The translations under genes and the position numbers were made by a program. Positions 7,309 to 63,369 of a DNA stretch of 64,000 nucleotides are shown here, piece by piece. The stretch is taken from positions 74 through 64,073 of IMG/VR virus record IMGVR_UViG_3300032249_000574; one strand, written 5' to 3'. The notes below the pieces were generated by a model that saw nothing but the letters and a program-made list of their open reading frames with translations, searched no databases and was not told the DNA's origin. The DNA is from a virus. Its lineage: Duplodnaviria; Caudoviricetes. Numbering within the stretch: the first letter of the stretch is position 1; each line of letters begins with the position of its first letter.

Positions 7309-7480
7309 CTTCTAGATCCTTCTGGATACATTTGGCCATGAGCTTCGCTGCATCGATCTGGCAAATGGTTGCCCTAAAGATTGCTGCGCCCGCATGCGTA
7401 TCGCAATCGTCCCTTAGTTTAGCCAGCATCGTCTTACTTCTCTCTAATGTTTCAATCATCCATTCTATATCGTATTTCAT
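7292..7480 (-). CDS. Hypothetical protein
   Basis: ORF in operon. Confidence 0.55.
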   Translation of the reverse strand: MKYDIEWMIETLERSKTMLAKLRDDCDTHAGAAIFRATICQIDAAKLMAKCIQKDLEDEPAK

Positions 7481-7911
7481 TTGTTCTCCTGTTTGCGGAT
7501 TTCCACTTCGGCATATCTGCCTATCTTGGCGATCTCGCGTTCTGCTTCTTTCTGTGTTCTAAAGAAAAGATCGATGACGGGAAGTCTTTTTTTCTTAGGT
7601 TTTGACCATTCGCTTTTCCTGTTGACGACTGCTGTACCGGTGTCTATTGCCCGCACAACTTTCCCAGTTTCCTTGATAGTCACATACGAACCGTACGGAA
7701 TTACGTACGGGTCTACCGCACACGATTTGCCAGAGACAAGCCTGCGCCCAGTCGAGGACTGCATTTTGCTTGTCCATTGATCTTGACCACACCAGTAAGC
7801 AGTAATGCGTACAAGCATCACCCTTGGAGGTTCGACTTCCCACATTAAGTTGGTCGCGCTAACCGGCACCGACCAGATGATAAGGACTCCGAGTAAATGC
7901 CTCACACGCAC
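7477..7911 (-). CDS. 3D (Asp-Asp-Asp) domain protein, MltA-like, with N-terminal signal/anchor
   Basis: RITAY, AVDP..IPYGS, AIDTG, IDLF motifs. Confidence 0.85.
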   Translation of the reverse strand: MRVRHLLGVLIIWSVPVSATNLMWEVEPPRVMLVRITAYWCGQDQWTSKMQSSTGRRLVSGKSCAVDPYVIPYGSYVTIKETGKVVRAIDTGTAVVNRKSEWSKPKKKRLPVIDLFFRTQKEAEREIAKIGRYAEVEIRKQENK

Positions 7912-8195
7912 AACTCATCCTCCACCTCGATCTCTTCCGCCTCCAGCGGTGGTTCCTCGATTTCCCTGAACCGTTCTTGGTTGAATCCTCGTTCAGGATA
8001 TGGTGGTGTAGACGAGTTTGGGTTTGGCATGTCTTTCAAGTAAACAACAATTTCTGGTTGGCTGTTCCACCCCACCCCTATGCCAACATCCCGCACCATA
8101 TATTGGGCATTCTTTACTGGCAGGTGGGTATAGAAATTAACTACTTCCTTTGGGAAGTTGTCGTCAATGCAAACTACTTTTGATCCTCTTCTCAT
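7902..8195 (-). CDS. Hypothetical phage protein
   Basis: Start MRRGSKVVCIDD; C-terminal GF..ERFR pattern. Confidence 0.6.
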   Translation of the reverse strand: MRRGSKVVCIDDNFPKEVVNFYTHLPVKNAQYMVRDVGIGVGWNSQPEIVVYLKDMPNPNSSTPPYPERGFNQERFREIEEPPLEAEEIEVEDELCV

Positions 8196-19915: not shown

Positions 19916-21220
19916 GTGCCAGCATACTTTCCTGAGAATAACAACCCGCTTCCATTAGATACGGAAGTTCGGTCGCTACAAAAGATCAATGATTTGCTAA
20001 GAGGTGGAATCGGTCTTTCTCTCACCAACAGTGGTCTTGGCTCAGATGCTTTTGGACGTCTTCGTGTATCCGAGCCATTTACTCTTTTTGATTCCAGTCA
20101 TCGGTATCGAGACAATGGGTTGTGGAATTCGTCTGTAGCTACAGGTGGTGCTGTATCTTTTAACGCCAATCAAGGATTGATAGATCTTACTGTTACGGCT
20201 GCCTCTGGTTCTAAAGTCCTACGGGAAACAACTAAGGTTTTTTCTTATCAGCCCGGTAAGTCTTTACTAATTCTTAACACTTTTGTTTTTGCTGAAGCTA
20301 AGACAAACCTAAGGCAAAGGGCTGGGTATTTCGGTACAGACAATGGTCTATATCTTCAACTTGATGGATCCACCTTAAGCTTCGTTGAGAGGAGTTTATC
20401 TACTGGAACTACAACTACTGTTAACCAAGCCGATTGGAATGGTGATAAGTTAAATGGCTCTGGTCCTTCTGGTCTTACCCTTGATATCTCTAAAGCCCAG
20501 ATCATGTGGATGGATATCGAATGGCTTGGTCTTGGCACAGTTCGTCTTGGTTTCGTGATTAATGGCCAGTTTATCACTTGCCACTCTTTCCATCATGCCA
20601 ATTTAATTACTTCTACTTATATCACTACAGCGAGTCTCCCCCTCCGTCTTGAGATTGAGAATACAGGGGCCACATCAGGTTCAAGTACTATGAAACAGGT
20701 TTGCTCGAGTGTTATTTCAGAAGGGGGTTACCAATTAAACGGGGCGCAACAAGCAGCCTTTACCCCAATTTTAGATCCTTATACGCTCGTTACCGCTGGG
20801 ACATATTATCCGATCGTATCGATAAGACTTAAGAGTACGAGACTGGATGCTATAGCTGTTTTGACAGCACTTTCTTTTTTGCCGACCGAGGCTAATGATT
20901 ACAACTGGCAAGTGAGAGCTGGATGTACAACGGCTAACGGATCTTGGGGCAATGTAGATGCTAATAGTGCTGTCGAATATAATCTTACTGGGACTAGTGT
21001 AAGCGATGGTAGGATCTTGGCTTCTGGGTTTGTTAAATCCACAGCTACTGTCGGTCCGAGTATCGACATATTAAAAGAGGCCCTTTTCCGTTTCCAGTTA
21101 GAGCGAAATACTTTCACAACCACCCCGTCTGAACTTTCTTTTGTTGTAGCGACTTCTGGGTCTGGGACGGTAAGCAAAGATGTCTTTGCCTCAATGGATT
21201 GGGAAGAGATTTCTCGGTAG
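19916..21220 (+). CDS. Virion structural protein (head fibre/decoration, beta-rich)
   Basis: DAFGRLRVS.P.TLFDS, YQPGKS, WLG.G.VR.G motifs typical of phage structural proteins. Confidence 0.6.
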   Translation: MPAYFPENNNPLPLDTEVRSLQKINDLLRGGIGLSLTNSGLGSDAFGRLRVSEPFTLFDSSHRYRDNGLWNSSVATGGAVSFNANQGLIDLTVTAASGSKVLRETTKVFSYQPGKSLLILNTFVFAEAKTNLRQRAGYFGTDNGLYLQLDGSTLSFVERSLSTGTTTTVNQADWNGDKLNGSGPSGLTLDISKAQIMWMDIEWLGLGTVRLGFVINGQFITCHSFHHANLITSTYITTASLPLRLEIENTGATSGSSTMKQVCSSVISEGGYQLNGAQQAAFTPILDPYTLVTAGTYYPIVSIRLKSTRLDAIAVLTALSFLPTEANDYNWQVRAGCTTANGSWGNVDANSAVEYNLTGTSVSDGRILASGFVKSTATVGPSIDILKEALFRFQLERNTFTTTPSELSFVVATSGSGTVSKDVFASMDWEEISR

Positions 21221-28426: not shown

Positions 28427-28462
28427 TTGCCGTCCGTTTGAGAATACGATACATACGATTCT

Positions 28463-39595: not shown

Positions 39596-39633
39596 CATTG
39601 CCGGACTACAAAAGTTTTGGTATTTAGATCTTT

Positions 39634-42600
39634 ATGGCTGCGATCAACGAGGAAGATCTGCAAGAATACCTCGAAGAACAACGGGCACTTGCCGAAGCCC
39701 CCACAGAATTAGATATTCCAGTAGCTCGAGTTGAGGAGCCTGTAGTAGCAGAAGAGACTCCGGCGCAAAGTTTTACAAACTGGGATTCTTACACCTCGGA
39801 TCCTGAATACCAGACCCTCGACTCAGCGGAAAAGCAGGAGTTGTACGACCGGTGGCGTCAATATGCCACAAATTACTTAGCATCAACGGGAAATCTGACT
39901 ACCAAGGACGATCTGGAATTTACCAAAAGCTATTTTTCGGGCATTGCAAAACAAGAAGGGCTAAAAGGAGCGGACTACGAACCACCAAGTTATGCTGAAC
40001 AGTTGATTCAACAAGGCCAGTCTGGTTATAGGTCGTTGGAATCTGGTGTTGCGGGATACGGTGCGTTGATTGGTGTAGCAGATACCGAGAGCGCAGCCAA
40101 TGCAATCGCGGAAAGAAAGCGGCAAGAGCAGGAAAAATATCTGAGTCCTGAATTCCAAGAGTATAGCAATAAACAACTTGGATTTTTTGGAGCTGTAAAA
40201 GAAATCGTAACGAACCCGTTTGATCTAGCGCTACCTTTTTTAGCGCAGAGCATGGGATCGAACCTTCCAGCTTTGGCCAGTTCACTTGGTATCGCCGGGA
40301 TAGGTGGAGCGGTTGCTGGGCCAGCAGGTGCGGCAAGTGCTGGTCTGTATTCCAGCGCTGTCTTGGGTGGGGCAACCGATGCTTTGGTAACCGTTGATCA
40401 GTTGATCACGGAAGAAGTTGAAAAGCGTGGGCTTAGTCCTACGGATCCGAAAGCGATTGCTTCAGTATTAGCTGACCCAGAATTTAAAGCGTACGCCATC
40501 AAGTACGCCAATGCCCGTGGCTTGGCGATCGGAGCGACTGGACTGGCTGCCTTCGGGCTTGGAAATATTTTAGCCGCCCCCGCCCGTGAAATTGCAAAAG
40601 CCGGTGTGCGTGGCGTTGCCAAAGAGGTTGGGAAACAAATCGGAATTCAAGTTGTCTCAGAACCGGTTGGTGAGGTTGCAGCTCAAGCCGGAGCTCAAGT
40701 AGCGACTAGTCAGCCTATTGATATTAAGGGACGAGAGGTAGCTGAAGAGTTAGTCATTGGCTTACCTATGTCTGGAGTTGAAGCTGCCACGCTGACCTAC
40801 AAAAATTTGGTTGAAAATAGTGCGCCAGCCTCCGCAGACCAAGTTCTTTTGGACCAGATTTCAGAACAGAACAGGACAGAATTACAAGGGGCGGCAACAA
40901 GAAACGAGGCAGATATTTTTTATAGAAATCTTTCGATTGACGAGAAAGTAAAGGTGCTAGAACTTGCCCCCAATGCAATCTTATCCGAAGAACAAAATGT
41001 TTTTGACACCTTAACACCCGAAGAAAAACAGAGGGTTGATAACGCTCTTAGGGCTACTCAACAGATAACGCAACCTCCGGTGCTTGCTCGGGAGGAAACC
41101 CCAGCACCAGCGGGGGAACAACCTCCGGTGCTTGTTCCTAAAGCGGAGGAGGCTCCAACTGCGGGTGAGCCACCTGTTCTTATCCCCACTCCAACTGCTC
41201 CCCCAGCCCCAACCTTGGCTGAAGCTGAGGCGGAAGCCGCTCAAGTATTTGCCGAACCAATCCCAACTCCTTCGGTTGTTGAGGCAGAGGTTACACCGCA
41301 AGAAGTCGTCAGAGAAGTCGGGGCAGAGGCTGGTTTTCCGGCTCCTGCGCCAGAGACTACGGCTCCGATTTCGGAAGCAGTTCAAGTTCCGCTTGAGCAG
41401 GTAGCTCCGGCTACAGCTCAGGTTGTCGCACAAGAAGAGATTCAAGCTCTAGCTCCCGTGGTTGAGACACTTGCTCCTGCTCCCGTTCCAGTAGCTGAAG
41501 CACCAGCTCCGACTCCTGTTGCTGAGACACCTGCTCCAAAAACTGAAGCTAAGAATCTGGATCAAAAAATTAAAGAAGCAGCAGATAGCCAAAGAGGGAA
41601 GCCAGAAACTACGATGATGGACGTGACTATGAAGCTGAAAGAAGAAACAGCATCATCTCCGACATTGATAGATTTATTAGAACATATCGGAGATCTTTCA
41701 AATAGAGCTCAGAAAGAAAACGCTATTGGGAATGTGGATGAGAAGATAGCGAAAGTTGAAAAGTATAGGAAAAATAATTGGGGAACAGTAAAAAGCTCGA
41801 TTGAACAAGGGTACCGAGAAAATGCAGAGTACCGAACATTAAAATCTATCCCAGAATTAGTGAGATTGAGTGACAATGTTGGTAAACCAGGTGGGCCGAA
41901 AGGATTGTTTGAGGTTTACGAAAAGTTACGAAAAGAACATGGGGATAAGATTGAGGCAGAGATTAAGAGGTCAAAAGAAATCGCAAAACAAGAACTTAGA
42001 AAGTATGTGGAAGCCCACGAAAAATTTAATAAGCCAGTAACTAAATTGGGAAAACTAGGGAAGGATGCGGCAATTGCTTTGGGAAACCAAAACTTCAATC
42101 AATTGGAAAAGATTGTTTCGGAAATGCGAGCGTGGGTTGACGAATATAATAACGCCACACCCCAGAGAAGACAAGAAATGTTCCGAGAGCTGGCAGAAAA
42201 GCCAACTGCGCCGGTCGTCGAAACCCCTACTCCCGCACCCGTAACCCCGGCAGTTCAGAAACTTCCTCCTACAAAGAAACAAGTTACAGCTCTTACTAAA
42301 CTGGGGTATTTACCTGCGGACATCGAAGGGCTAGATAGAACCCAAGCGAAGGATATTGTTGCCAAACAAACTCCGAAGACCCCAACAGTTGAAGCACCGA
42401 AAGAAACAGCACCAGAAGTCGCAGCAGGAGCCCCAGCTCCCGAAGCTCCCGCCGTCCCGCCAGCCCCAGTCAGCGAACCTACCGCTCCCAAAGCGGAGGA
42501 GCGACCGGCTGGAGAAGTTGGTGCACCTGTGGCACCTCCAGCAGGCGAGCCGACCGCCCCGCAGACCGCAGACGAGAGACTAGCGCAGGCAGAAGAACAA

Positions 42601-45600
42601 TTCAGCAGGGTTGCTGAAACTTTACAAACCAATCTGGCAGGAACCAACATCAAACTAGATGGGGAATCAGTCGCTAGTTTCTTAGGACCTAACCCCAACC
42701 CCGAAGTTCAAGCAAGACTGGGAAGGTTATTAAAGATTCTTAACACCGCACTCGCTAATGTGAAGCGGGAGATTGAAAAGAAAGGTTCTCTGGGTCGCGG
42801 TCGCAATCTTAAAGAAGCGTTTACAAATATCGAAAGTATTGTCGTCGATCCCAACGCTCGTGGGGGTGGTGGTCTTTATGCCGATCCGAGAAATCCTTAT
42901 GTGGCTGGCGTTCTTTTCTTAAACCCAAACCAACTGGCGAGAGTTTTGATGTCGAGCGCTACTACAAATCCTGGTGACTTCTTGGTCAAGATGTTGGAGG
43001 AAGAAATTCTGCACATCAGCGACGGCAAGGCCATGCTTTCGGCTTTCATCCAGAAGTTCCCGAGGGCTAGTAACCCAGAAATCTACGCAAATCCAGAATC
43101 TATTCGCAAAGCATTCGAGGAATTCTATGACCAAAGCAACAGAGAGATTGAACAAAGTCTTTCAGTTTCCCAGATCAAACAGGTGCTTGGCCCCTATGCC
43201 CAGTCTTTAGGCATCGATCTGGAAGGCAAGTCCAAGGAACAGATTATTGGGGAATTTAATCGTGGCAGACCAGGACGGTTGGCCGAGGAGTATGTTCGAG
43301 CGGTTATCCAGTTAAACAACTCCGGCTCAATCACGGAAGATACGATCAAGTCTCTTGTCACCAAGCCGATTCTCCGGCTCCTCGGGGCTCTCCGCACTTA
43401 TTTAAAGAGGTTGGTCGGAGATCTTGGGACTGGTGTCAAAAGTCGCAAAACCATTTTTGATAATAGATACGATGCCATCCAAGACATCTTGGCTAATAAA
43501 ACTTCCCCCCGTCTGATTAGGGAAGCTATCGGCGAGGTAGCTACTGTGCCAAGTAATTTGCTGGCTAGTAGCGCAGACCCAATAGCTCAAGAAGAAGCTA
43601 GATTACAACAGCAAAACAATAAAGATTTGTTCGAAAAGATTGACTACGAGTTTGATGACAGGGTGCGCCTAACCGACAAAGAGATCGAAGACGCGGCGAC
43701 GGGTAAAAAAGAAAGACGAGGAAGATCACGGGCTGCTGTCGAAGCCTCTCTTTCCCGCTCGTTCCCAACTATTCGGGACAGAGATGAAGTGCGGATGGCG
43801 GTCAACGACGCTTTGATGGAAGCTATCGGATCCTATAACGACCAAAAAGGATCTGCGCTTCCAACGTATGTGTATCGTCTGGCTGCTAATAGACTTCTAC
43901 GGGCCAAGCAGAAAATAGTTAGGGAAAGGGCGAGAACTCCCTACAGCTTTGATGCTCCTGGATTTTTTAGCGTATCTCCTGAACTTCGTAGTGTGGAGGC
44001 TGGGGCTGCGGAAGTTGAACGCCTGACTTCGGGTGTTGGCTGGGAACAGATTGAAACAGCCCCGGCAAAACGCAGAAGCCTAACCCCAGAACAAAAAGAA
44101 GCCCAGCGTCAAGCGTTGCTTGCCCGTCCTACCGGGGAAGAAGCAACTAGAGCTGAGATCGCAAAGGAAGAAACTGCCCTTGCTGGACTTGAACAAGCCG
44201 TGGAGATCAAGCCCCAAGTCACTTCCTACGACGAACCTTTAGAAATGGTAACTCAAACCTTGGCAGACGGGGAAAAAATCTCTGCTGCCGACGCGAAAGT
44301 TGCGAATAAAATTACTTCGGACATGCTGGCTAGCCAGAATGAGTTGACCCAAAAACTTGGGGATGCTCTCGTTAAACTACAGGATAGGACGAACATAAAG
44401 AATACAGCTCGCGATGCCGAAATTATCCAGTATGTGTCAGGGGCTTCGAACAAAACGAGGGCTGAAATATCTGAGCAATACGGGCTGACCAACGACCAGT
44501 TCACCAAGATCCGAGACGACCTAATGATCAAGCTACGAGACCTCCTTGTTCAAGACGGAATCTCCCGACGGGATGTTCCTGGCAATATCGTCTACGCTTC
44601 CTCGATTGACCCGACATACAGCCAAGCCTTAAACCGAGCCATCTCAACGATCCCGAGAGACATTGCTCTGCGAAAGGCGCTAACGACCCGAGTCATCGAG
44701 TCTTATGTGGAAGACGAAGTGATGCGTAAAGCAAACGCTTTCGTAGATGCCAACTCTCCGGGTAATGATGTTATGTACGCCAAGCGAGTGTTGGATGGGA
44801 ACAAGGGTATTCCGTTTGAAGAACGCCTTGTGACCCTTGGTGTTATCGGACGCAGACTGCGGGATGCTGTTCAGCTTATCGACGACAGAATTCTTTTGGA
44901 CCAGACAACCAAGGGGGGTACTACTCCGGAGAATCTTGCCCTTCGGGATTATCTAGCCAACAACTTGGGTGAAGCCCTGTCAGCCGGGCAGGAGTTGGCT
45001 TCACGGGCAGGACAAGATTTGCGGGCGACTCGGATTCTTGCCAACATGTTCCTCCCTTACGCAATCGTAAAGCAGTACACCGGTCCGATTTTTAATCAGC
45101 AAAAGGAAGTCCTCGATGCCAAAGAAGAGATCCGGCGTCTGCGTGAGGATCTGGCCGCACTCCAAGCGGAGTTAGCTGGCACATCATCCAACGGCAGTTT
45201 CACGGTTCTACCACCGACCACCCCAGATGAAGGACCTAGGATTGTAATTGGCGAGCGCAAGCCTGATCAGCCAGCACCTGAAGGTGAAAGCTTCTACCAG
45301 CTCTTAGCTGCTTTCGGAGACATGGCACCAACGGCTGACGAAAACTTCTATGAGTATCTTATCCGACTCGGGATTCCGTACGAGGAGTTGGTGGCGAGCA
45401 TCGAGGGGGTCAAAGCCTCTGCTGCTACACCCACCGGACCGAGCAGGGTTCTGCCAGAGGGCTTGCAAAATCTTCCAGCCAGCGAAGCTATCCAGAAATT
45501 GCTAGCTATCGATAAAAATTTGTTAAGCAAACTGATCTCTTTGCGAATCAAGAGTGGGAAAGTTGCTACCAACCAAGATTTGGAAGCCAGCTTCGAGCGT

Positions 45601-48600
45601 CGCAAGATCGATACGAAAGCCTTGCAAGCCAGACCCAATGAGCTCCAGACAGTATTTGATTTCTTTAACTCAACGCTGAGTGAGAAGCCAACCGATCCAC
45701 AACCAATCGAGAAAGACCCATTACCTCCGCTTGTTAGGTTGGCCAAGTATGCGGCTGATGCCGTCACGGGGAGAGTCTTAAGATCGCTGGGTGCGGACCA
45801 AGCAGGGAAGACCAAGGAACAGCAGACTGCGTTTGCTAAACTGGAGAGCGAGGTTCGCAAGCTGGTCAACGCTCAGTTCAAGCAAGAAACAAATCCGACA
45901 CAGGTTTCGGCGGAGGATACCCGTTCAGTTGAGCAACGACTGCTGGATGTAGTAAAGCGGGTAGAGCTCTCAGAACAAGTCTTCAACCAGGTTCAGGGTA
46001 ATCTTCGATCCCAGCTTGCCGAGGATACCAGACGGCGTGAAGCCAAGGCTGAAGGCCAGTTGACTAGCGGAGAGAGAAAACGTTTGGAAGAAATAGCTGC
46101 AAAGACATTTAACGCCAATGCTGTTCGGTCGTTGGACAGTTTGCTACGCCAAGTTGTCGACTTTAAGGCCGAGGCTCGCAAACATTTGACCCAACGGGGT
46201 GCAAGCGTTCTGTCGTTAACTAACATCGTCAAGGAGAAGTTTACGAACTTCACCGAGAAACAAGCTGAATCGCTAGCCAAACTAATCGCCGTAAGATACG
46301 GCGACTTGGTCAAGAAAGCCGGTGAACGTCAACTTGCTAACATTGTTAGGAGAGTCGGGGATAAGGGAGAGCAGGCGCCCAAGAAAAGTATTGATCAGAT
46401 GCTTGAGCTTATCAACCTCGGAGCATTTGATGACGAAAAATTTTATAATGTAATCGCTGAGCGCTATACGGATCTTCCATCTTGGGACCCCGAAGTTGTG
46501 GCAGAGATCAAAAAACGGGCTGACAAAATTCAAAGACTGACCCCCGACTCTGACCAAGCAGCAACTGAGTCAATTTCTTTGCAAACGTACATTGCTAACG
46601 AGATGTATAAACAACAGAAGGGCTGGGACAAACTTGGTCGGCAACTGGATGTTGCGTCGGCTCTATGGAAAGCTGGGGTTTTATCGGGTCCTCCGACTCA
46701 GATTGTAAACTTGGGAGCTACCCACCTCAACGTATTGATGGAGCTATTTACCGACGCCAATGCTTACGCTAAGGCATCAAAGAAGAAAGGTCTCGAAGGA
46801 AAGTTTGGGGACTACTTGGCGACAGCCCTCTCCGCATACCTCGAAGCTGCTGGTCGGATGGGTGTGGAACAAGCGGGTGACGCAGTAGCGACTGGGCTTA
46901 GCCGATTCAGAAACGAAAAGAAAATCGAACTCAACCCCTTGGAAACTTTCAAGTTTGACAGCAACAAGCCGTGGTCTATCAACAACTACATTGCGGCTTG
47001 GAAGCTCGTTGGTCGAGCTATGGCTGCGGCTGACACGTACAACTCGGTCGTTGCGAACGAGGCAAAAACCCGCATGGCTGCTAGGTACTCTTTACTACAG
47101 CAAGGGCTGACCGCGGAACAAACCACTAAGAAAGCAGAAGATATCTTTAACAAATCGAACCCCGAAATAATTAACATTAGGCAACAGGTGGCGCAGGAAG
47201 AAGCTAAGGGAGAGTTCGGGAGTCTCGCGGGTCTCCAACCTAAGACTCAGTCCTACCGAGAAATGAACCGCAAGATTGAGGCTGGCAAACGTCGTCGGTT
47301 TAACCAGCTTCGGGACAAGTTCATCGAGAAAGAAGCTGGATTTGCGAAAGGCCAGATGGACGACATCCGAGAGTTTTCCCAGTTTGCAACATTCAACAAC
47401 ACCCCTACCGGTTTAATTGGGTATTTGGGAGGGGCGGTCATAGGCGGAATCGCTGGGAAAACTAAGTTACTCACACCATTTGTAGCGTTCCCTCGCACAA
47501 TTGCCAACATCATCAACTCCGGTTTGAACTACACTCCGTATGGTTGGTTGCGGGCCAACGGATTCTCCTTGGGGAATATCAGCGGAGCAATTAGAGATTC
47601 GGAATACCGGTTCAAAAAACCTGAACCAGGTAGCGTCGAGTACTATCAGTTACAGACTAAAGCTTTTTACGGATCGCTCGTTGCCTTCACCTTAATTGGG
47701 CTTGCCATGAAAGACATCGACAAGGACTGGGACGAGGCTTTCTTTGCTGTAACGGGTCGAGGCCCGACAGACCAGAATCAAAAAGAGCAGTTGATGCAAG
47801 CAGGATGGCGAGAGAACTCGGTTAAAATCGGACCATTGAAGTTCCGTCATACAGATTTCCCAGGACTTAACACAATTTTTGGGGCGATGGCTTTGGTGTC
47901 TGACCAATACCGGTACGGCAAACTGAGTGAGAAAGACTTTATTACTTTGGCATCTACTGCTGCTTTGTCTGTCGCAAATTCAATCTTCGATAAGCAATTG
48001 TTGTCTGGCATGAAGACGTTGTTCGACGCCGTCTCTGATAGGGGGGATGCATCTGATAAAGCTAAGAAGATTATTCAAAGCTATTCGGCTGGGTTCCTTA
48101 ACCCCGGTATTGCTCGTTGGACAACCCGTACTTTCGACATCGGTCCGGACGGTAAGGTCGGCGTAACCGATTATAAAGAACTTAACGCAACCTCTGGGGG
48201 GTTCTTGATCGGGCTAACCCCATTAGCAGTAGTGGCGGGTAAACCAAAACTCAATCGGCTTGGTGAAGAGATTAGAGAATATCCTTGGGCAGCGACTGAA
48301 AAACGGTTCGGTGTATTGCCGACCATGGCACCCCACCCTGTCTTTACCCCGTTGGTTCGCGGTGGTTTATTTGTGCCAGGAGCCAGTATCAATCTGAAGA
48401 TCAACGCAAGAGAGAACGGCAAACCCATCCAACGTAAGATGGATAGGGAAGAGTATTACAACTACTCTAAGTATAACGGAGAATACCTCAAGCGAATCCT
48501 TACCCCTGCTAGGGCTGAGTCCCTTGCTAGACTGGCTAGAACCAATCAAGATGCTGCGCAGAAACAGTTGGAAAAAATGGCGGACCGAGCCAAGGACTAC

Positions 48601-48642
48601 GCTAAAATCCGCATCGAAGCTGAGATCAGACGCAAGCGGTGA
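39634..48642 (+). CDS. Giant (3002 aa) internal virion/ejection polyvalent protein with zincin-like and sigma-70-like domains
   Basis: Last and largest ejection-block gene; N-terminal hydrophobic G/A segment, P/A/E linkers, EEEILH...AEEYVR, sigma region 2/3/4-like motifs, C-terminal PF..FPR.I.NI segment typical of large polyvalent proteins. Confidence 0.8.
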   Translation: MAAINEEDLQEYLEEQRALAEAPTELDIPVARVEEPVVAEETPAQSFTNWDSYTSDPEYQTLDSAEKQELYDRWRQYATNYLASTGNLTTKDDLEFTKSYFSGIAKQEGLKGADYEPPSYAEQLIQQGQSGYRSLESGVAGYGALIGVADTESAANAIAERKRQEQEKYLSPEFQEYSNKQLGFFGAVKEIVTNPFDLALPFLAQSMGSNLPALASSLGIAGIGGAVAGPAGAASAGLYSSAVLGGATDALVTVDQLITEEVEKRGLSPTDPKAIASVLADPEFKAYAIKYANARGLAIGATGLAAFGLGNILAAPAREIAKAGVRGVAKEVGKQIGIQVVSEPVGEVAAQAGAQVATSQPIDIKGREVAEELVIGLPMSGVEAATLTYKNLVENSAPASADQVLLDQISEQNRTELQGAATRNEADIFYRNLSIDEKVKVLELAPNAILSEEQNVFDTLTPEEKQRVDNALRATQQITQPPVLAREETPAPAGEQPPVLVPKAEEAPTAGEPPVLIPTPTAPPAPTLAEAEAEAAQVFAEPIPTPSVVEAEVTPQEVVREVGAEAGFPAPAPETTAPISEAVQVPLEQVAPATAQVVAQEEIQALAPVVETLAPAPVPVAEAPAPTPVAETPAPKTEAKNLDQKIKEAADSQRGKPETTMMDVTMKLKEETASSPTLIDLLEHIGDLSNRAQKENAIGNVDEKIAKVEKYRKNNWGTVKSSIEQGYRENAEYRTLKSIPELVRLSDNVGKPGGPKGLFEVYEKLRKEHGDKIEAEIKRSKEIAKQELRKYVEAHEKFNKPVTKLGKLGKDAAIALGNQNFNQLEKIVSEMRAWVDEYNNATPQRRQEMFRELAEKPTAPVVETPTPAPVTPAVQKLPPTKKQVTALTKLGYLPADIEGLDRTQAKDIVAKQTPKTPTVEAPKETAPEVAAGAPAPEAPAVPPAPVSEPTAPKAEERPAGEVGAPVAPPAGEPTAPQTADERLAQAEEQFSRVAETLQTNLAGTNIKLDGESVASFLGPNPNPEVQARLGRLLKILNTALANVKREIEKKGSLGRGRNLKEAFTNIESIVVDPNARGGGGLYADPRNPYVAGVLFLNPNQLARVLMSSATTNPGDFLVKMLEEEILHISDGKAMLSAFIQKFPRASNPEIYANPESIRKAFEEFYDQSNREIEQSLSVSQIKQVLGPYAQSLGIDLEGKSKEQIIGEFNRGRPGRLAEEYVRAVIQLNNSGSITEDTIKSLVTKPILRLLGALRTYLKRLVGDLGTGVKSRKTIFDNRYDAIQDILANKTSPRLIREAIGEVATVPSNLLASSADPIAQEEARLQQQNNKDLFEKIDYEFDDRVRLTDKEIEDAATGKKERRGRSRAAVEASLSRSFPTIRDRDEVRMAVNDALMEAIGSYNDQKGSALPTYVYRLAANRLLRAKQKIVRERARTPYSFDAPGFFSVSPELRSVEAGAAEVERLTSGVGWEQIETAPAKRRSLTPEQKEAQRQALLARPTGEEATRAEIAKEETALAGLEQAVEIKPQVTSYDEPLEMVTQTLADGEKISAADAKVANKITSDMLASQNELTQKLGDALVKLQDRTNIKNTARDAEIIQYVSGASNKTRAEISEQYGLTNDQFTKIRDDLMIKLRDLLVQDGISRRDVPGNIVYASSIDPTYSQALNRAISTIPRDIALRKALTTRVIESYVEDEVMRKANAFVDANSPGNDVMYAKRVLDGNKGIPFEERLVTLGVIGRRLRDAVQLIDDRILLDQTTKGGTTPENLALRDYLANNLGEALSAGQELASRAGQDLRATRILANMFLPYAIVKQYTGPIFNQQKEVLDAKEEIRRLREDLAALQAELAGTSSNGSFTVLPPTTPDEGPRIVIGERKPDQPAPEGESFYQLLAAFGDMAPTADENFYEYLIRLGIPYEELVASIEGVKASAATPTGPSRVLPEGLQNLPASEAIQKLLAIDKNLLSKLISLRIKSGKVATNQDLEASFERRKIDTKALQARPNELQTVFDFFNSTLSEKPTDPQPIEKDPLPPLVRLAKYAADAVTGRVLRSLGADQAGKTKEQQTAFAKLESEVRKLVNAQFKQETNPTQVSAEDTRSVEQRLLDVVKRVELSEQVFNQVQGNLRSQLAEDTRRREAKAEGQLTSGERKRLEEIAAKTFNANAVRSLDSLLRQVVDFKAEARKHLTQRGASVLSLTNIVKEKFTNFTEKQAESLAKLIAVRYGDLVKKAGERQLANIVRRVGDKGEQAPKKSIDQMLELINLGAFDDEKFYNVIAERYTDLPSWDPEVVAEIKKRADKIQRLTPDSDQAATESISLQTYIANEMYKQQKGWDKLGRQLDVASALWKAGVLSGPPTQIVNLGATHLNVLMELFTDANAYAKASKKKGLEGKFGDYLATALSAYLEAAGRMGVEQAGDAVATGLSRFRNEKKIELNPLETFKFDSNKPWSINNYIAAWKLVGRAMAAADTYNSVVANEAKTRMAARYSLLQQGLTAEQTTKKAEDIFNKSNPEIINIRQQVAQEEAKGEFGSLAGLQPKTQSYREMNRKIEAGKRRRFNQLRDKFIEKEAGFAKGQMDDIREFSQFATFNNTPTGLIGYLGGAVIGGIAGKTKLLTPFVAFPRTIANIINSGLNYTPYGWLRANGFSLGNISGAIRDSEYRFKKPEPGSVEYYQLQTKAFYGSLVAFTLIGLAMKDIDKDWDEAFFAVTGRGPTDQNQKEQLMQAGWRENSVKIGPLKFRHTDFPGLNTIFGAMALVSDQYRYGKLSEKDFITLASTAALSVANSIFDKQLLSGMKTLFDAVSDRGDASDKAKKIIQSYSAGFLNPGIARWTTRTFDIGPDGKVGVTDYKELNATSGGFLIGLTPLAVVAGKPKLNRLGEEIREYPWAATEKRFGVLPTMAPHPVFTPLVRGGLFVPGASINLKINARENGKPIQRKMDREEYYNYSKYNGEYLKRILTPARAESLARLARTNQDAAQKQLEKMADRAKDYAKIRIEAEIRRKR

Positions 48643-48856: not shown

Positions 48857-48923
48857 ACTAGTTCCTTTTTTGTTAGGGGTTTGGGACTGGACTGTCCAGT
48901 CTTTTTGTAGGAGATAAGAAGGT

Positions 48924-60692: not shown

Positions 60693-63369
60693 TTATTTTC
60701 TCCTTTTTTGTTAGGGTGACAGACCAAACTGTATGGTCGTCGTAGAAGGCTGTGTCTAATGCTTCTTGTAAGTTGTGGTAGAAAAGCCGACCGACTAGCA
60801 CATTGTCTTTGTCGAACAATGCGTAGCAGTCCCAGTCCTTAATACCAGCGTGTACCTTTACTCCCTCGCTCATCCGAGTGTTGGGAGTAGGCTGGATAAG
60901 AACTTGGGGAAGGACTTCTCCACCTTACAGTTGCTCACCAAGGACTCTGCATCGTGGATACCACGAGCCTTGAGTTCCCCGATCAGCTTGGTCATTGAGA
61001 TGTCAGACCTCGAGCCTTGGCTGGCCGTGATCTGCCACTTGATTCCCTGGAAGTGTGTCACTCCCCGTTCCTCAAGTGCCGTCTTGAACACGGGGATGAT
61101 GCTCTCTCGGAGCTTCTCCGCGTTCAACTTGGTCTGGTTGTATTCGCCGAACAAGTCTACTTGTTCCGCTGTATATATTAGTTTGCTCATTGTGTCCTCC
61201 TTTTATTGGTTGCTATGTGTTACCACATAGATTCTTCAGCCCGCATAGACGCCACCTCACCGATGACTTCTTCAGCGGTTCGTTTCAAATCCTCGGGGAT
61301 AACCTCGAGGTCACCCACCATAAGATTCTTAAACTCTACATCGTCGGTCACATAGGAATAAACATGATCGCTGTATCCACTCGGCCCGATGTCTTGCTTC
61401 GACATCGTGACGGTCACATCAGCGGATGCACAATACTCCTGATCGTTGTGAGTGAACTCGACTTCTACATTATTTTCCCAAGTCATAATTTCTTCCTCTT
61501 TCTTTGTTGTTTCTTTGCGAGTTGAACTAGAATCTCGCCGAGAGTATCCAAGATATCTCGACTGAGCCGTCGCTGTTTGGCCTTGGTCATATATCAAACT
61601 CCATCTGCTGGGCGACTGGTTCAATCTGATAGCCGTATGCCCAGTTGCCAGACGCTAGGTCGAACACGCACCCACCCTTCTCGGCCACGGGTATGGATTC
61701 CACGGGGTCACCATACTTGCCGCCGTCCGGGCACTTGTCGATGTTCACCACCTTGGTCTGCTTCCAGCCATCAGTTCCGAACGAACCCCGCCACCAGACG
61801 AGGTCACCTTTTCGGATTGTCATTGGTTTGAGTGTCATTTCACCTCCACAAACTCGGCAATCCCGCAACGGTTTCCGTTAAGGTCGACGAGTTTTTCGGG
61901 GACGAACCCAGAGGCCATCGAGTCGGATACTTCACCGAGGATTCTGGATATCTCGGCAAACATTCCGTTCTCCTCAAAGGCTTGGTTGCCCGTCTGAATT
62001 TCGATCTTGAACTTGTGTTTCATTGTTATCCTCCTTTTGGTATTCGACCAGCACGGAGTATAGAACCTCCTGCCAGTCGTCGATTGCTTTGTCCATCTTT
62101 GATTTGGGGTGCTTCACCGCTTGGCCTTCTTCTTAGGCACAGTCACGATGCGTTGTTCAATTCCAGCGTCGATAAAGTCGGTTGCCCCGACTGTATTTCC
62201 GTTGCTGTCCTTGAGCGTCACGCACACAAACTCTTTGTGCATATCGTTGACGAGCCCTTGGAATATCCTAGCCAACTCTGGCCAAGGTGTGGGCTGGAAA
62301 GCATCGCCTCCCACCTTCACCTCGACTTTGAATACTGCTTCACTCATAGGTCAACTCCTCCTTTCTTTAATAGCCAAACTGCTCCGAAGCTAAGTAGGAT
62401 GCACGGCACGAGCCATTGGCCGATCTTCCAGAACACGAGTGCCAGGAATACGGCGTTCTCGACTGTCATTTACGCCTACCTACTTGGATGTTGGAGTTGC
62501 GGTTCTCGAACCTCGTCCGATGGTACCGCTTCTCCACGACTGCTTCGATGATGGCTTCGCAAGCACGATGAAACCTCTTGGACTTCCGTGCCACATCGCC
62601 TCGGACGCATCGCACGTCCACGCTGTCCCGTCTGCCCGTTAGTTTGTCCCAATCTTGGGGACGCTCCATTGGATTCAATATGATGTCGTCTTGCATATAC
62701 CTCCCATTTCTTCATAGGTCTCGCCTGCCAGAGCCAAGAAGTCATCCGACCTCTTTCTTGTTAGCTTGCAAGCCAGACCCAGAGCTTGTTGAGTAGCATC
62801 TGACTCGTCCTTGGCGTGGACACACACGGCCATACGACCGAATGGATTTTTCCACGACCAGACGAATACTCTGTATTCTTTTTGCATATAGGCTTTCTAT
62901 ACAGCCCGCCCGCCTGCGAAAAGAACATTCCGCAGGATGGATTGCTGACCTTTACGATTGGTAATCTTCTTGTGTCTCTCGAAGTCTTCTGGATTCCGAA
63001 AGATTTGAATAGTCCCGCCCGTCTTGTGGTCGAAGACCAGCGAACCCCGATAACGTGGGGTTTCCACGCTACGGGGAACGCTGACCTTCCTACCGATTGG
63101 AAACGGGGGGATTCTGCTTACGACTGAGGCTTCCACGTCACCGAGAGCTTATCCAGCTCGGCTTGGGAAACATCCTCGTATCGAATCTTCACTCCGAAGT
63201 CCGAGGCACGGGCATTGACCATCCGCAGGTCAGCGTTGAACTCCCGCTTGGCCTGCTCGATGGCGAACTTGGGGTTGCGGTTGGCAGAACCTACATAGCC
63301 AGACTTGTTGAGTCTCGCAGAGTATGTTCCATTGGAATTGCATATGATAGTATGCTCTTTCATTGTCAC
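60689..63369 (-). other. Cluster of about 11 small early ORFs (e.g. 60870-61190, 61220-61486, 61835-62023, 62114-62347, 62466-62696, 62675-62887, 62897-63136, 63118-63369)
   Basis: Same strand, strong SD sequences, overlapping packing; no recognisable enzymes. Confidence 0.65.

Follow-up and report, generated by a model that had tools for sequence, protein, structure and literature searches.

We analyzed a 64,000-nucleotide stretch of viral DNA (hereafter the window; positions 74 to 64,073 of IMG/VR record IMGVR_UViG_3300032249_000574, Caudoviricetes). The record is 64,073 bases long and rated 92% complete, and the window is nearly all of it. The largest gene of the window (39634-48642, +) encodes 3002 residues and is placed between tail-fiber genes on the 5' side and an endolysin gene on the 3' side, with a promoter-like element (39598-39633, +; TTGCC-N18-TATTTA-N7-ATG) directly upstream. 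In the middle of the giant protein, residues 1311-1660 (43564-44613, +; 350 residues) form a sigma-70-family-like cargo module, matched by TIGR02937, a PDB profile, AlphaFold models and Atlas look-alikes. The module comprises a sigma-2-like domain (43723-43935, +), a long, net acidic and variable linker (43936-44388, +) and a sigma-4-like helix-turn-helix domain (44389-44568, +). It is bracketed by two copies of a short peptide motif, A-S-S-A-D-P preceded by L at 43564-43581 (+), kept at the same place in relatives, and A-S-S-I-D-P at 44596-44613 (+), the module end in the window, and a conserved helical module (42574-43563, +; residues 981-1310, alignment A2) lies immediately upstream.

The giant protein shows homology to an internal virion protein family in its C-terminal part, where residues 2614-2816 (47473-48081, +) match positions 956-1143 of the 1375-position profile PHROG 6651 (E 1.5e-12). 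Conservation is highest over the C-terminal 1350 residues, which are 44-59% identical between clades; the nearest Pfam-bearing Atlas cluster of this part carries LPD38 (score 0.95), a likeness that we take as a lead only, and a Pfam scan of the whole giant protein of the window detected no polyvalent-protein domain. Beyond the PHROG profile, the protein has extra N-terminal, proline-rich, helical and sigma modules. The gene order, tail fiber, giant gene and endolysin, is circumstantial evidence of presence in the virion and of ejection. Taken with the PHROG match and with an ART-PolyVal domain in a relative (see below), this virion gene block supports a probable virion protein, the assignment made earlier by a reading of the sequence without database searches (the sequence-only reading). 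A tape-measure protein is less likely, since tail-tube, sheath and tape-measure families were absent among the open reading frames scanned and the PHROG match is to an internal virion protein.

Sequence similarity of the module to sigma factors

The sequence-only reading had proposed an apparently complete sigma factor within the giant protein on the basis of four peptide stretches, all of which are present in the giant frame at the places reported to within 3 nt: DEVRMAV...ANRL (43783-43896), PTGEE...AKE (44128-44169), VTSYDEPL (44218-44241) and ARDAEII...RDLL (44407-44547). Two of the four proved sigma-like beyond chance, the last, region 4-like one by its modeled fold (see below) and the first, region 2-like one by Pfam Sigma70_r2, which is matched both in the window and in relatives. 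In the window the match covers module residues 83-117 (E 0.017, 15.3 bits; cut-off 24). The same model matches 6 of the 7 aligned family members (best E 1.1e-5) and three of four further modules at E <= 0.1. Each of five related virus records also contains exactly one match, always within the giant frame, and two of these records exceed the Pfam cut-off (27.9 and 24.5 bits); P0012 gives 22.6 bits. The suggested Pfam check of residues 1310-1660 thus bore out region 2, below the cut-off in the window itself, while the region-4 models remained silent.

At nearly full length, module residues 75-327 match positions 30-164 of the 165-position NCBIfam model TIGR02937, sigma70-ECF (extracytoplasmic function), at E 2e-4 to 5e-4, with 21 bits in the window against a cut-off of 42.9. 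For the seven aligned members, the NCBIfam listing comprises 23 families, 17 of them sigma families, and the strongest match is to the type III-E CRISPR-associated RpoE-like sigma factor (E 9.3e-7, in 3 of the 7 members). A profile search of the PDB with alignment A1 yielded 15 sequences at E <= 10, of which 12 are sigma factors (WhiG, E 0.015; RpoS and SigK, E 0.029), and the region 2 and region 4 stretches were matched in the correct order; HMMER aligned the module to region 2 of WhiG, FliA and SigK. By sequence, region 4 was reached only by the whole-length TIGR02937 match and the RpoS alignment. Similar families were found among language-model look-alikes in the Atlas: the ten named cluster rows shown (score 0.95-0.96) are all sigma or helix-turn-helix families, eight of the ten carry sigma-70 region 2, region 4 or ECF families, all ten best clusters share a family or clan, and several are viral sigma clusters of about 200 residues.

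Predicted structure of the module

A template-free AlphaFold model of the module, made with a seven-sequence alignment, had a mean pLDDT (predicted local distance difference test) of 63, with confident blocks at module residues 11-30, 51-120 and 281-330. When the model was compared by VIA-align with 48,161 representative chains, the top match was the ECF sigma factor SigL (6dv9_F, Z 8.0), with a root-mean-square deviation (rmsd) of 24.1 over 161 residues; therefore, both domains match SigL and their relative placement does not. The sigma-2-like domain, which is supported by both Pfam Sigma70_r2 and VIA-align, has helices at module residues 54-66, 73-90 and 99-124 and contains the region 2.1-2.3 signature (43783-43896). 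It most closely resembles RpoE (5uxx_C, Z 6.9, rmsd 3.3, 88 residues), followed by 1h3l_B (Z 5.5), 8b3z_A (Z 5.2) and 2o7g_B (Z 4.9), and also 1sig_A. A sigma-2 fold with the region 2.1-2.2 signature is thus present in the model, at middling Z values. The sigma-4-like domain (module residues 276-335, VIA-align) matches SigL 3hug_A (Z 7.7, rmsd 2.6, 78 of 80 residues), then 3vep_D, 4nqw_A, 5wuq_A, 6ono_B and 2h27_D at Z 5.7-6.1, and many sigma-4-only chains match at Z 5-6. Foldseek against the PDB listed 50 rows, all of them sigma chains or sigma-containing RNA polymerase entries (E 0.03-0.23). The fold check proposed for residues 1310-1660 therefore came out as predicted, with sigma-2 and sigma-4 folds in the correct order, and the stretch read as a region 4 helix-turn-helix is supported by its modeled fold (3hug_A) but not by Pfam Sigma70_r4 or r4_2, which gave no match.

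The neighboring module at residues 981-1310 (pLDDT 60) served as an internal control and showed no sigma enrichment, its matches being spread over mixed families; the best VIA-align match was an HMG box at Z 5.8, Foldseek E-values were at least 0.6, and neither a PDB sequence match (0 found) nor a clear fold match was obtained. Because hidden Markov models, PDB profiles, AlphaFold folds and language-model look-alikes agree, we consider the module to be sigma-derived, and these comparisons and models confirm residues 1311-1660 as a probable diverged sigma-70-family-derived module with sigma-2 and sigma-4 parts. Chance resemblance, whereby a helical, charged segment would mimic sigma profiles without common descent, appears very improbable to us: every score is indeed marginal (PDB E 0.01-0.03; Foldseek E at least 0.03; Z at most 8), but four independent methods lead to the same family with the two domains in order, two relatives exceed the Pfam cut-off and the control module is silent.

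The linker and the class of sigma factor

The two domains are separated by a linker of about 150 residues (module 125-275), much of it modeled with low confidence: pLDDT falls below 50 at module residues 125-138, 162-172 and 207-254, and block means are 39-74 elsewhere (51-63 across module 181-210). It has an excess of acidic residues (K+R 17, D+E 25 over module 136-275), varies in length, and is gapped or unalignable between clades. The stretches that had been read as regions 3 and 3.2 fall within this linker and did not hold up as sigma regions, lying in a low-confidence segment of the model that is gapped or unalignable between clades; a weak alignment to RpoS region 3.2-4 (E 0.003) extends over it. 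The full-length sigma alignments obtained by VIA-align span about 145-171 residues, roughly sigma-2 and sigma-4 alone.

The description of an apparently complete sigma factor is therefore not supported, with a region-3 domain finding no support and the Pfam region-4 models silent. The proposed group 2/3 class was likewise not borne out, the nearest factors being of ECF type (SigL, RpoE and the type III-E CRISPR RpoE-like factor) and FliA/WhiG. Because sigma-3 finds no support, the linker is long and the alignments cover 145-171 residues, we classify the module, as far as sequence and models indicate, as a sigma relative of the ECF-like or FliA/WhiG-like kind, its two domains joined by an extended linker.

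Conservation of the module in related giant proteins

The lineage is uncultured, and we compared the window with six related IMG/VR records besides its own and with proteins from JGI, ENA and Logan. Searching with the module itself retrieved collinear giant proteins: P0012 (named "sigma24 family protein" by JGI), P0013-P0016, P0017 (L003) and P0018 (L002). The open frames of the collinear relatives are 2977-3312 residues long, and that of P0016, which was found separately, 2618 residues. To avoid circular ascertainment, IMG/VR was also searched with a whole-protein alignment and with the patterns DRTQAKD and EGK[TS]KEQ, which lie upstream of the module, and the module was found in all six loci that came from patterns outside it (hmmsearch with the A1 profile, E 2e-15 to 5e-128). 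The suggested inspection of homologous giant proteins thus gave a clear answer, the module being present in every relative recovered.

Between clades the module is 23-38% identical. The region 2.1-2.3 signature is kept in alignment A4, which spans four clades, and its 2.1-2.2 part is the best conserved part of the module. In established sigma biology, region 2.2 is the core-binding surface. This bears on the possibility that the module was exapted for DNA binding or for a structural role, in which it would hold or guide the genome end in the capsid or the ejection channel without contacting a polymerase. Sigma-4 is a plain helix-turn-helix, the curated sigma thresholds are missed in the window and the complex prediction described below is weak, all of which would suit such a role; the part most conserved across the four clades is, however, the region 2.2 core-binding signature and not the DNA-contacting parts, and we regard exaptation as unlikely.

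Several observations weigh against a sigma-derived module that still works as such. The curated thresholds of Sigma70_r2 (24 bits) and TIGR02937 (42.9 bits) are not reached in the window, and Pfam Sigma70_r4 and r4_2 are silent in the module of the window and of five relatives. Every Foldseek E-value exceeds 0.001, and the VIA-align Z values, at most 8.0, are in the middling range. The wider alignment A4 left the PDB E-values unimproved (best 0.01; 8 of the 18 matches sigma) and shows the sigma-4 part to be poorly conserved between clades. The Asn in the helix after region 2.2, which we take to be typical of ECF factors, occurs only in the window's clade (alignments A1 and A4).

A free-standing module was sought among proteins of 141-613 residues, where none was found at E <= 0.01, and among those of 614-2000 residues, where only the fragment P0015 appeared; both are weak negatives from searches that scored only 8000 candidates sharing most words. 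Neither the module nor the putative portal protein matched any of 50,697 phage records by tblastn, and the phage is therefore without a close cultured relative.

A bracketing peptide motif and exchangeable cargo

The module begins with L-A-S-S-A-D-P and ends with Y-A-S-S-I-D-P in the window. Most relatives have the same or a similar motif at both borders (L-A-S-S-I-D-P-N, L-S-A-S-x-D-P or M-A-S-S-I-E-P); only degenerate borders are seen in the L005/L009 clade. Copies within one gene use different synonymous codons, and therefore it is the peptide and not the DNA that is conserved or under selection; a DNA repeat for recombination is ruled out by the same codon differences. When all six frames of the window were inspected, the motif appeared in the giant protein and, as one weak case, in a 239-residue frame at 61832-62551. 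This near confinement to the giant protein also speaks against our reading, because it gives no indication of a general prohead protease. We looked for a built-in protease in the helical module upstream of the first boundary motif, which has an invariant E-E-x-x-H...G stretch with E-E-[IV]-[LI]-H conserved, and none was identified at residues 981-1310 by PDB sequence or fold comparison.

In several relatives, the sigma module is followed by one extra, unrelated module that is closed by another copy of the motif. In L005 this slot (7453-8130, +) holds an ADP-ribosyltransferase domain, ART-PolyVal (PF18760; E 1.2e-15, 58.9 bits against a cut-off of 31.2). In L004, L006, L007, L008 and L009 it holds unrelated cargo of 158 to 478 residues, for which Pfam gave no match at E <= 0.01. 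This arrangement fits L-A-S-S-x-D-P motifs that would act as processing sites or as docking linkers for exchangeable cargo, and motif-bracketed exchangeable cargo places the giant protein among polyvalent proteins as these are described in the main text of PMC5512222. Comparison of the relatives shows the sigma-derived module to be the constant, motif-bracketed cargo of what appears to be a giant internal virion/polyvalent protein. The bracketed variable cargo, including ART-PolyVal in a relative, argues that the carrier is, judged by its sequence, a polyvalent, T7-gp16-like ejection protein.

Other parts of the carrier also show conserved and variable stretches. The stretch K-L-P-P-T-K-K-Q...L-D-R-T-Q-A-K-D-I (residues 876-908; 42259-42357, +) is highly conserved in all clades, in every one of which it is flanked by proline-rich linkers. 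G003 shows a weak match to Sigma70_r4_2 (E 8.4e-4, 14.8 bits) some 2.4 kb 5' of where it matches sigma-2, perhaps coinciding with this stretch. Near-identical relatives differ in the segment that separates the N-terminal domain from the K-L-P-P-T-K-K motif, and this segment looks like a second variable slot of the giant protein. Residues 631-712 of the relative P0005 (compare 41524-41769 in the window) weakly match DUF6302 (25.7 bits against a cut-off of 27.2), a match that belongs to P0005 and not to the protein of the window, and P0008 holds other inserts there.

Predicted binding to RNA polymerase and possible mechanisms

We predicted a complex between the sigma-2 part and residues 150-450 of RpoC1 from Synechococcus elongatus, a stand-in chosen from the guessed host group. 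Binding to the beta-prime clamp, which had been proposed for checking, reached a score of 0.46, the highest of three controls being 0.00, and was graded as weak support; the partner had a pLDDT of 72, and 89% of contacts were shared between runs. The mark that was passed is reached by 58 of 80 solved complexes and by 2 of 110 mismatched pairs; among scores of 0.60 or under, it is reached by only 7 of the 80 solved complexes and by both passing mismatches. Sigma-RNA polymerase complexes have been solved many times, and therefore the pass may reflect likeness only.

These observations are consistent with the following sequence of events. The giant protein would be packaged in the head and ejected along with the DNA, like T7 gp16 and the N4 virion RNA polymerase. 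The sigma module would then use its region 2.2 surface to bind the core RNA polymerase of the host, acting either tethered or after being freed by cutting at the flanking L-A-S-S-x-D-P motifs, and the bound module would direct or bias the first transcription on the entering phage genome. Presence in the virion, ejection, cleavage, core binding and promoter-specific initiation are steps that we infer, and we put the chance that a virion-delivered sigma module binds the host core polymerase and biases the first transcription on the entering genome at about even.

A more elaborate form of this mechanism would have the sigma module remain tethered at the cytoplasmic end of an ejection channel formed by this giant protein, where it would capture a host core polymerase and load it on the first promoter of the genome end as this emerges. 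Host transcription would then both launch the infection programme and pull in the remaining DNA, and the L-A-S-S-x-D-P slots would let additional injected effectors, for example an ADP-ribosyltransferase, be plugged in. Genome entry of T7 is completed by transcription. We think this form doubtful; if true, it would mean transcription-coupled genome entry achieved by delivering specificity and not a polymerase.

Alternatively, the module may act as a decoy that binds the core polymerase or a sigma regulator without initiation, displacing the host sigma factor and blunting host and defense transcription. The conservation pattern is compatible with this, the best conserved part being the region 2.1-2.2 signature of the core-binding surface and clades differing in the sigma-4 part and in the residues that follow region 2.2. 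ART-PolyVal adjoins the sigma module in one relative, and T4 Alt, an injected ADP-ribosyltransferase, modifies host RNA polymerase (main text of PMC5512222). The sigma-4-like DNA-binding fold that is kept in the model speaks against a decoy, as does the small number of copies delivered. The core polymerase pool of a cell is large compared with 12-30 ejected copies. Few copies of an ejection protein enter the cell, about 12 to 30 for P22 according to the available text of PMC8402733, and we consider a pure decoy or shut-off role improbable.

Genome context and a promoter-like element

The sequence-only reading had seen no RNA polymerase and no free sigma gene in the window. Its second part stands, in that Sigma70_r2, r4, r4_2 and TIGR02937 gave no match elsewhere in the 64-kb, 92% complete genome. 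The six-frame TIGR02937 scan missed even the module that hmmscan found at E 2e-4, and these genome scans are therefore of limited sensitivity. As for the polymerase, a Pfam scan of the entire giant protein, taken up to E 10, included no RNA polymerase family; the genome scan with PF00940 (T7-type polymerase) was empty, but its own control was also silent, hence it is uninformative.

The promoter-like element upstream of the giant gene keeps the same spacing to the ATG in all seven giant genes compared, with a largely conserved sequence in which TTGAT replaces TTGCC in two of the seven. The general form TTGMC-N18-[TG]AN[AT]TA-N7-ATG has four strict matches in the window, at 28427, 31677, 39598 and 50671, every one of them plus-strand, where a Markov model predicts 0.86 for the two strands together; a loose form occurs at 48888, and the element is also found in L002-L009. 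Several structural genes of the plus strand have it exactly 7 nt upstream of their ATG, a spacing that would lead to leaderless or near-leaderless mRNAs. Part of it overlaps a Shine-Dalgarno-like AGGAG, so that a role in ribosome binding is possible. Two more elements 3' of the giant gene recur in the loci of most relatives.

Such an element raises the possibility of a late-gene sigma factor, active while the giant protein is made and driving the promoter-like elements before structural genes, with packaging being secondary. The module is the only sigma-like sequence found in the genome, and the non-canonical element precedes four plus-strand genes including the giant gene. However, the giant gene itself bears the element, so that a first source of the factor would still be required, the promoter nature is putative given the overlap with AGGAG, and the bracketing motif and neighboring effector cargo fit delivery better than late expression. 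We therefore judge a late-gene role to be rather improbable.

Clues to the host are sparse. The DNA polymerase has only distant matches, at most 28% identical. For the tail-fiber protein, the best-covered matches are from Synechococcus phages (28-32% identity), those from Ralstonia phages being most numerous, and the overall G+C content is about 49%. A cyanobacterial host is our guess. A virion structural protein gene (19916-21220, +; PHROG 1645, E 1.7e-137) encodes a product 65-70% identical to proteins of T4-like cyanomyoviruses, and is likely to be shared across phage types in one host environment. The phage is podovirus-like and marine, and no RNA polymerase gene was detected in it.

Comparison with known systems

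Free phage sigma factors such as the ECF-like phiEco32 gp36 are also two-domain sigma-like proteins, and they retarget the host core polymerase as the module would; the use of phiEco32-type sigma factors is described in the available text of PMC4281155. Unlike these, the module studied here is embedded in a virion protein of 3002 residues, with some 150 residues of linker between its domains, and falls short of the curated thresholds in the window. The N4 virion RNA polymerase is also a giant protein, with a transcription function embedded centrally, as would be the case here; it has about 3500 residues, is packaged in the phage head and enters the cell with the DNA (available texts of PMC13434306 and PMC4496689). 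In contrast to N4, Pfam detected no single-subunit polymerase catalytic domain in the giant protein, which would instead confer promoter specificity on the host enzyme and not catalysis.

Polyvalent proteins (Iyer et al. 2017, PMC5512222) share with the carrier a huge, multidomain architecture and exchangeable effectors, and are delivered with the DNA as the carrier would be. They differ from the carrier in that cargo bracketing by L-A-S-S-x-D-P is not described in the text consulted, and the word "sigma" occurs 0 times in the main text of that paper, supplements aside. Internal core proteins of the T7 gp16 type are similar in their PHROG 6651 match at the C-terminal part and in their place in a structural gene block, but the giant protein is more than twice as long as the 1375-position profile. 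T4 Alt is a head-packaged protein that alters host polymerase specificity at the onset of infection (PMC5512222, main text), as the giant protein would; Alt is a polymerase-modifying enzyme, whereas here a sigma-like subunit is found and only the relative L005 adds an ART domain.

The sequence-only reading had noted that no characterized sigma factor is known to be delivered as part of an ejection polyprotein, and our literature search agrees: none was found to be reported as part of a virion or an ejection protein, the supplements of PMC5512222 and PMC7824862 aside. A sigma module in an ejection protein is thus a combination of known kinds that we have not found described.

Phages take over transcription in three known ways: they inject an RNA polymerase, inject an enzyme that modifies the polymerase, or make a sigma factor after entry. 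If our reading is true, a sigma-like subunit in the ejection machinery would be a fourth route, which provides promoter specificity at time zero without a polymerase, and the cargo catalogue of polyvalent proteins would be extended. The conserved peptide motif that brackets the cargo is directly testable as a processing site. Since the phage has cyanophage-like genes, the mechanism may matter for marine phage-host biology.

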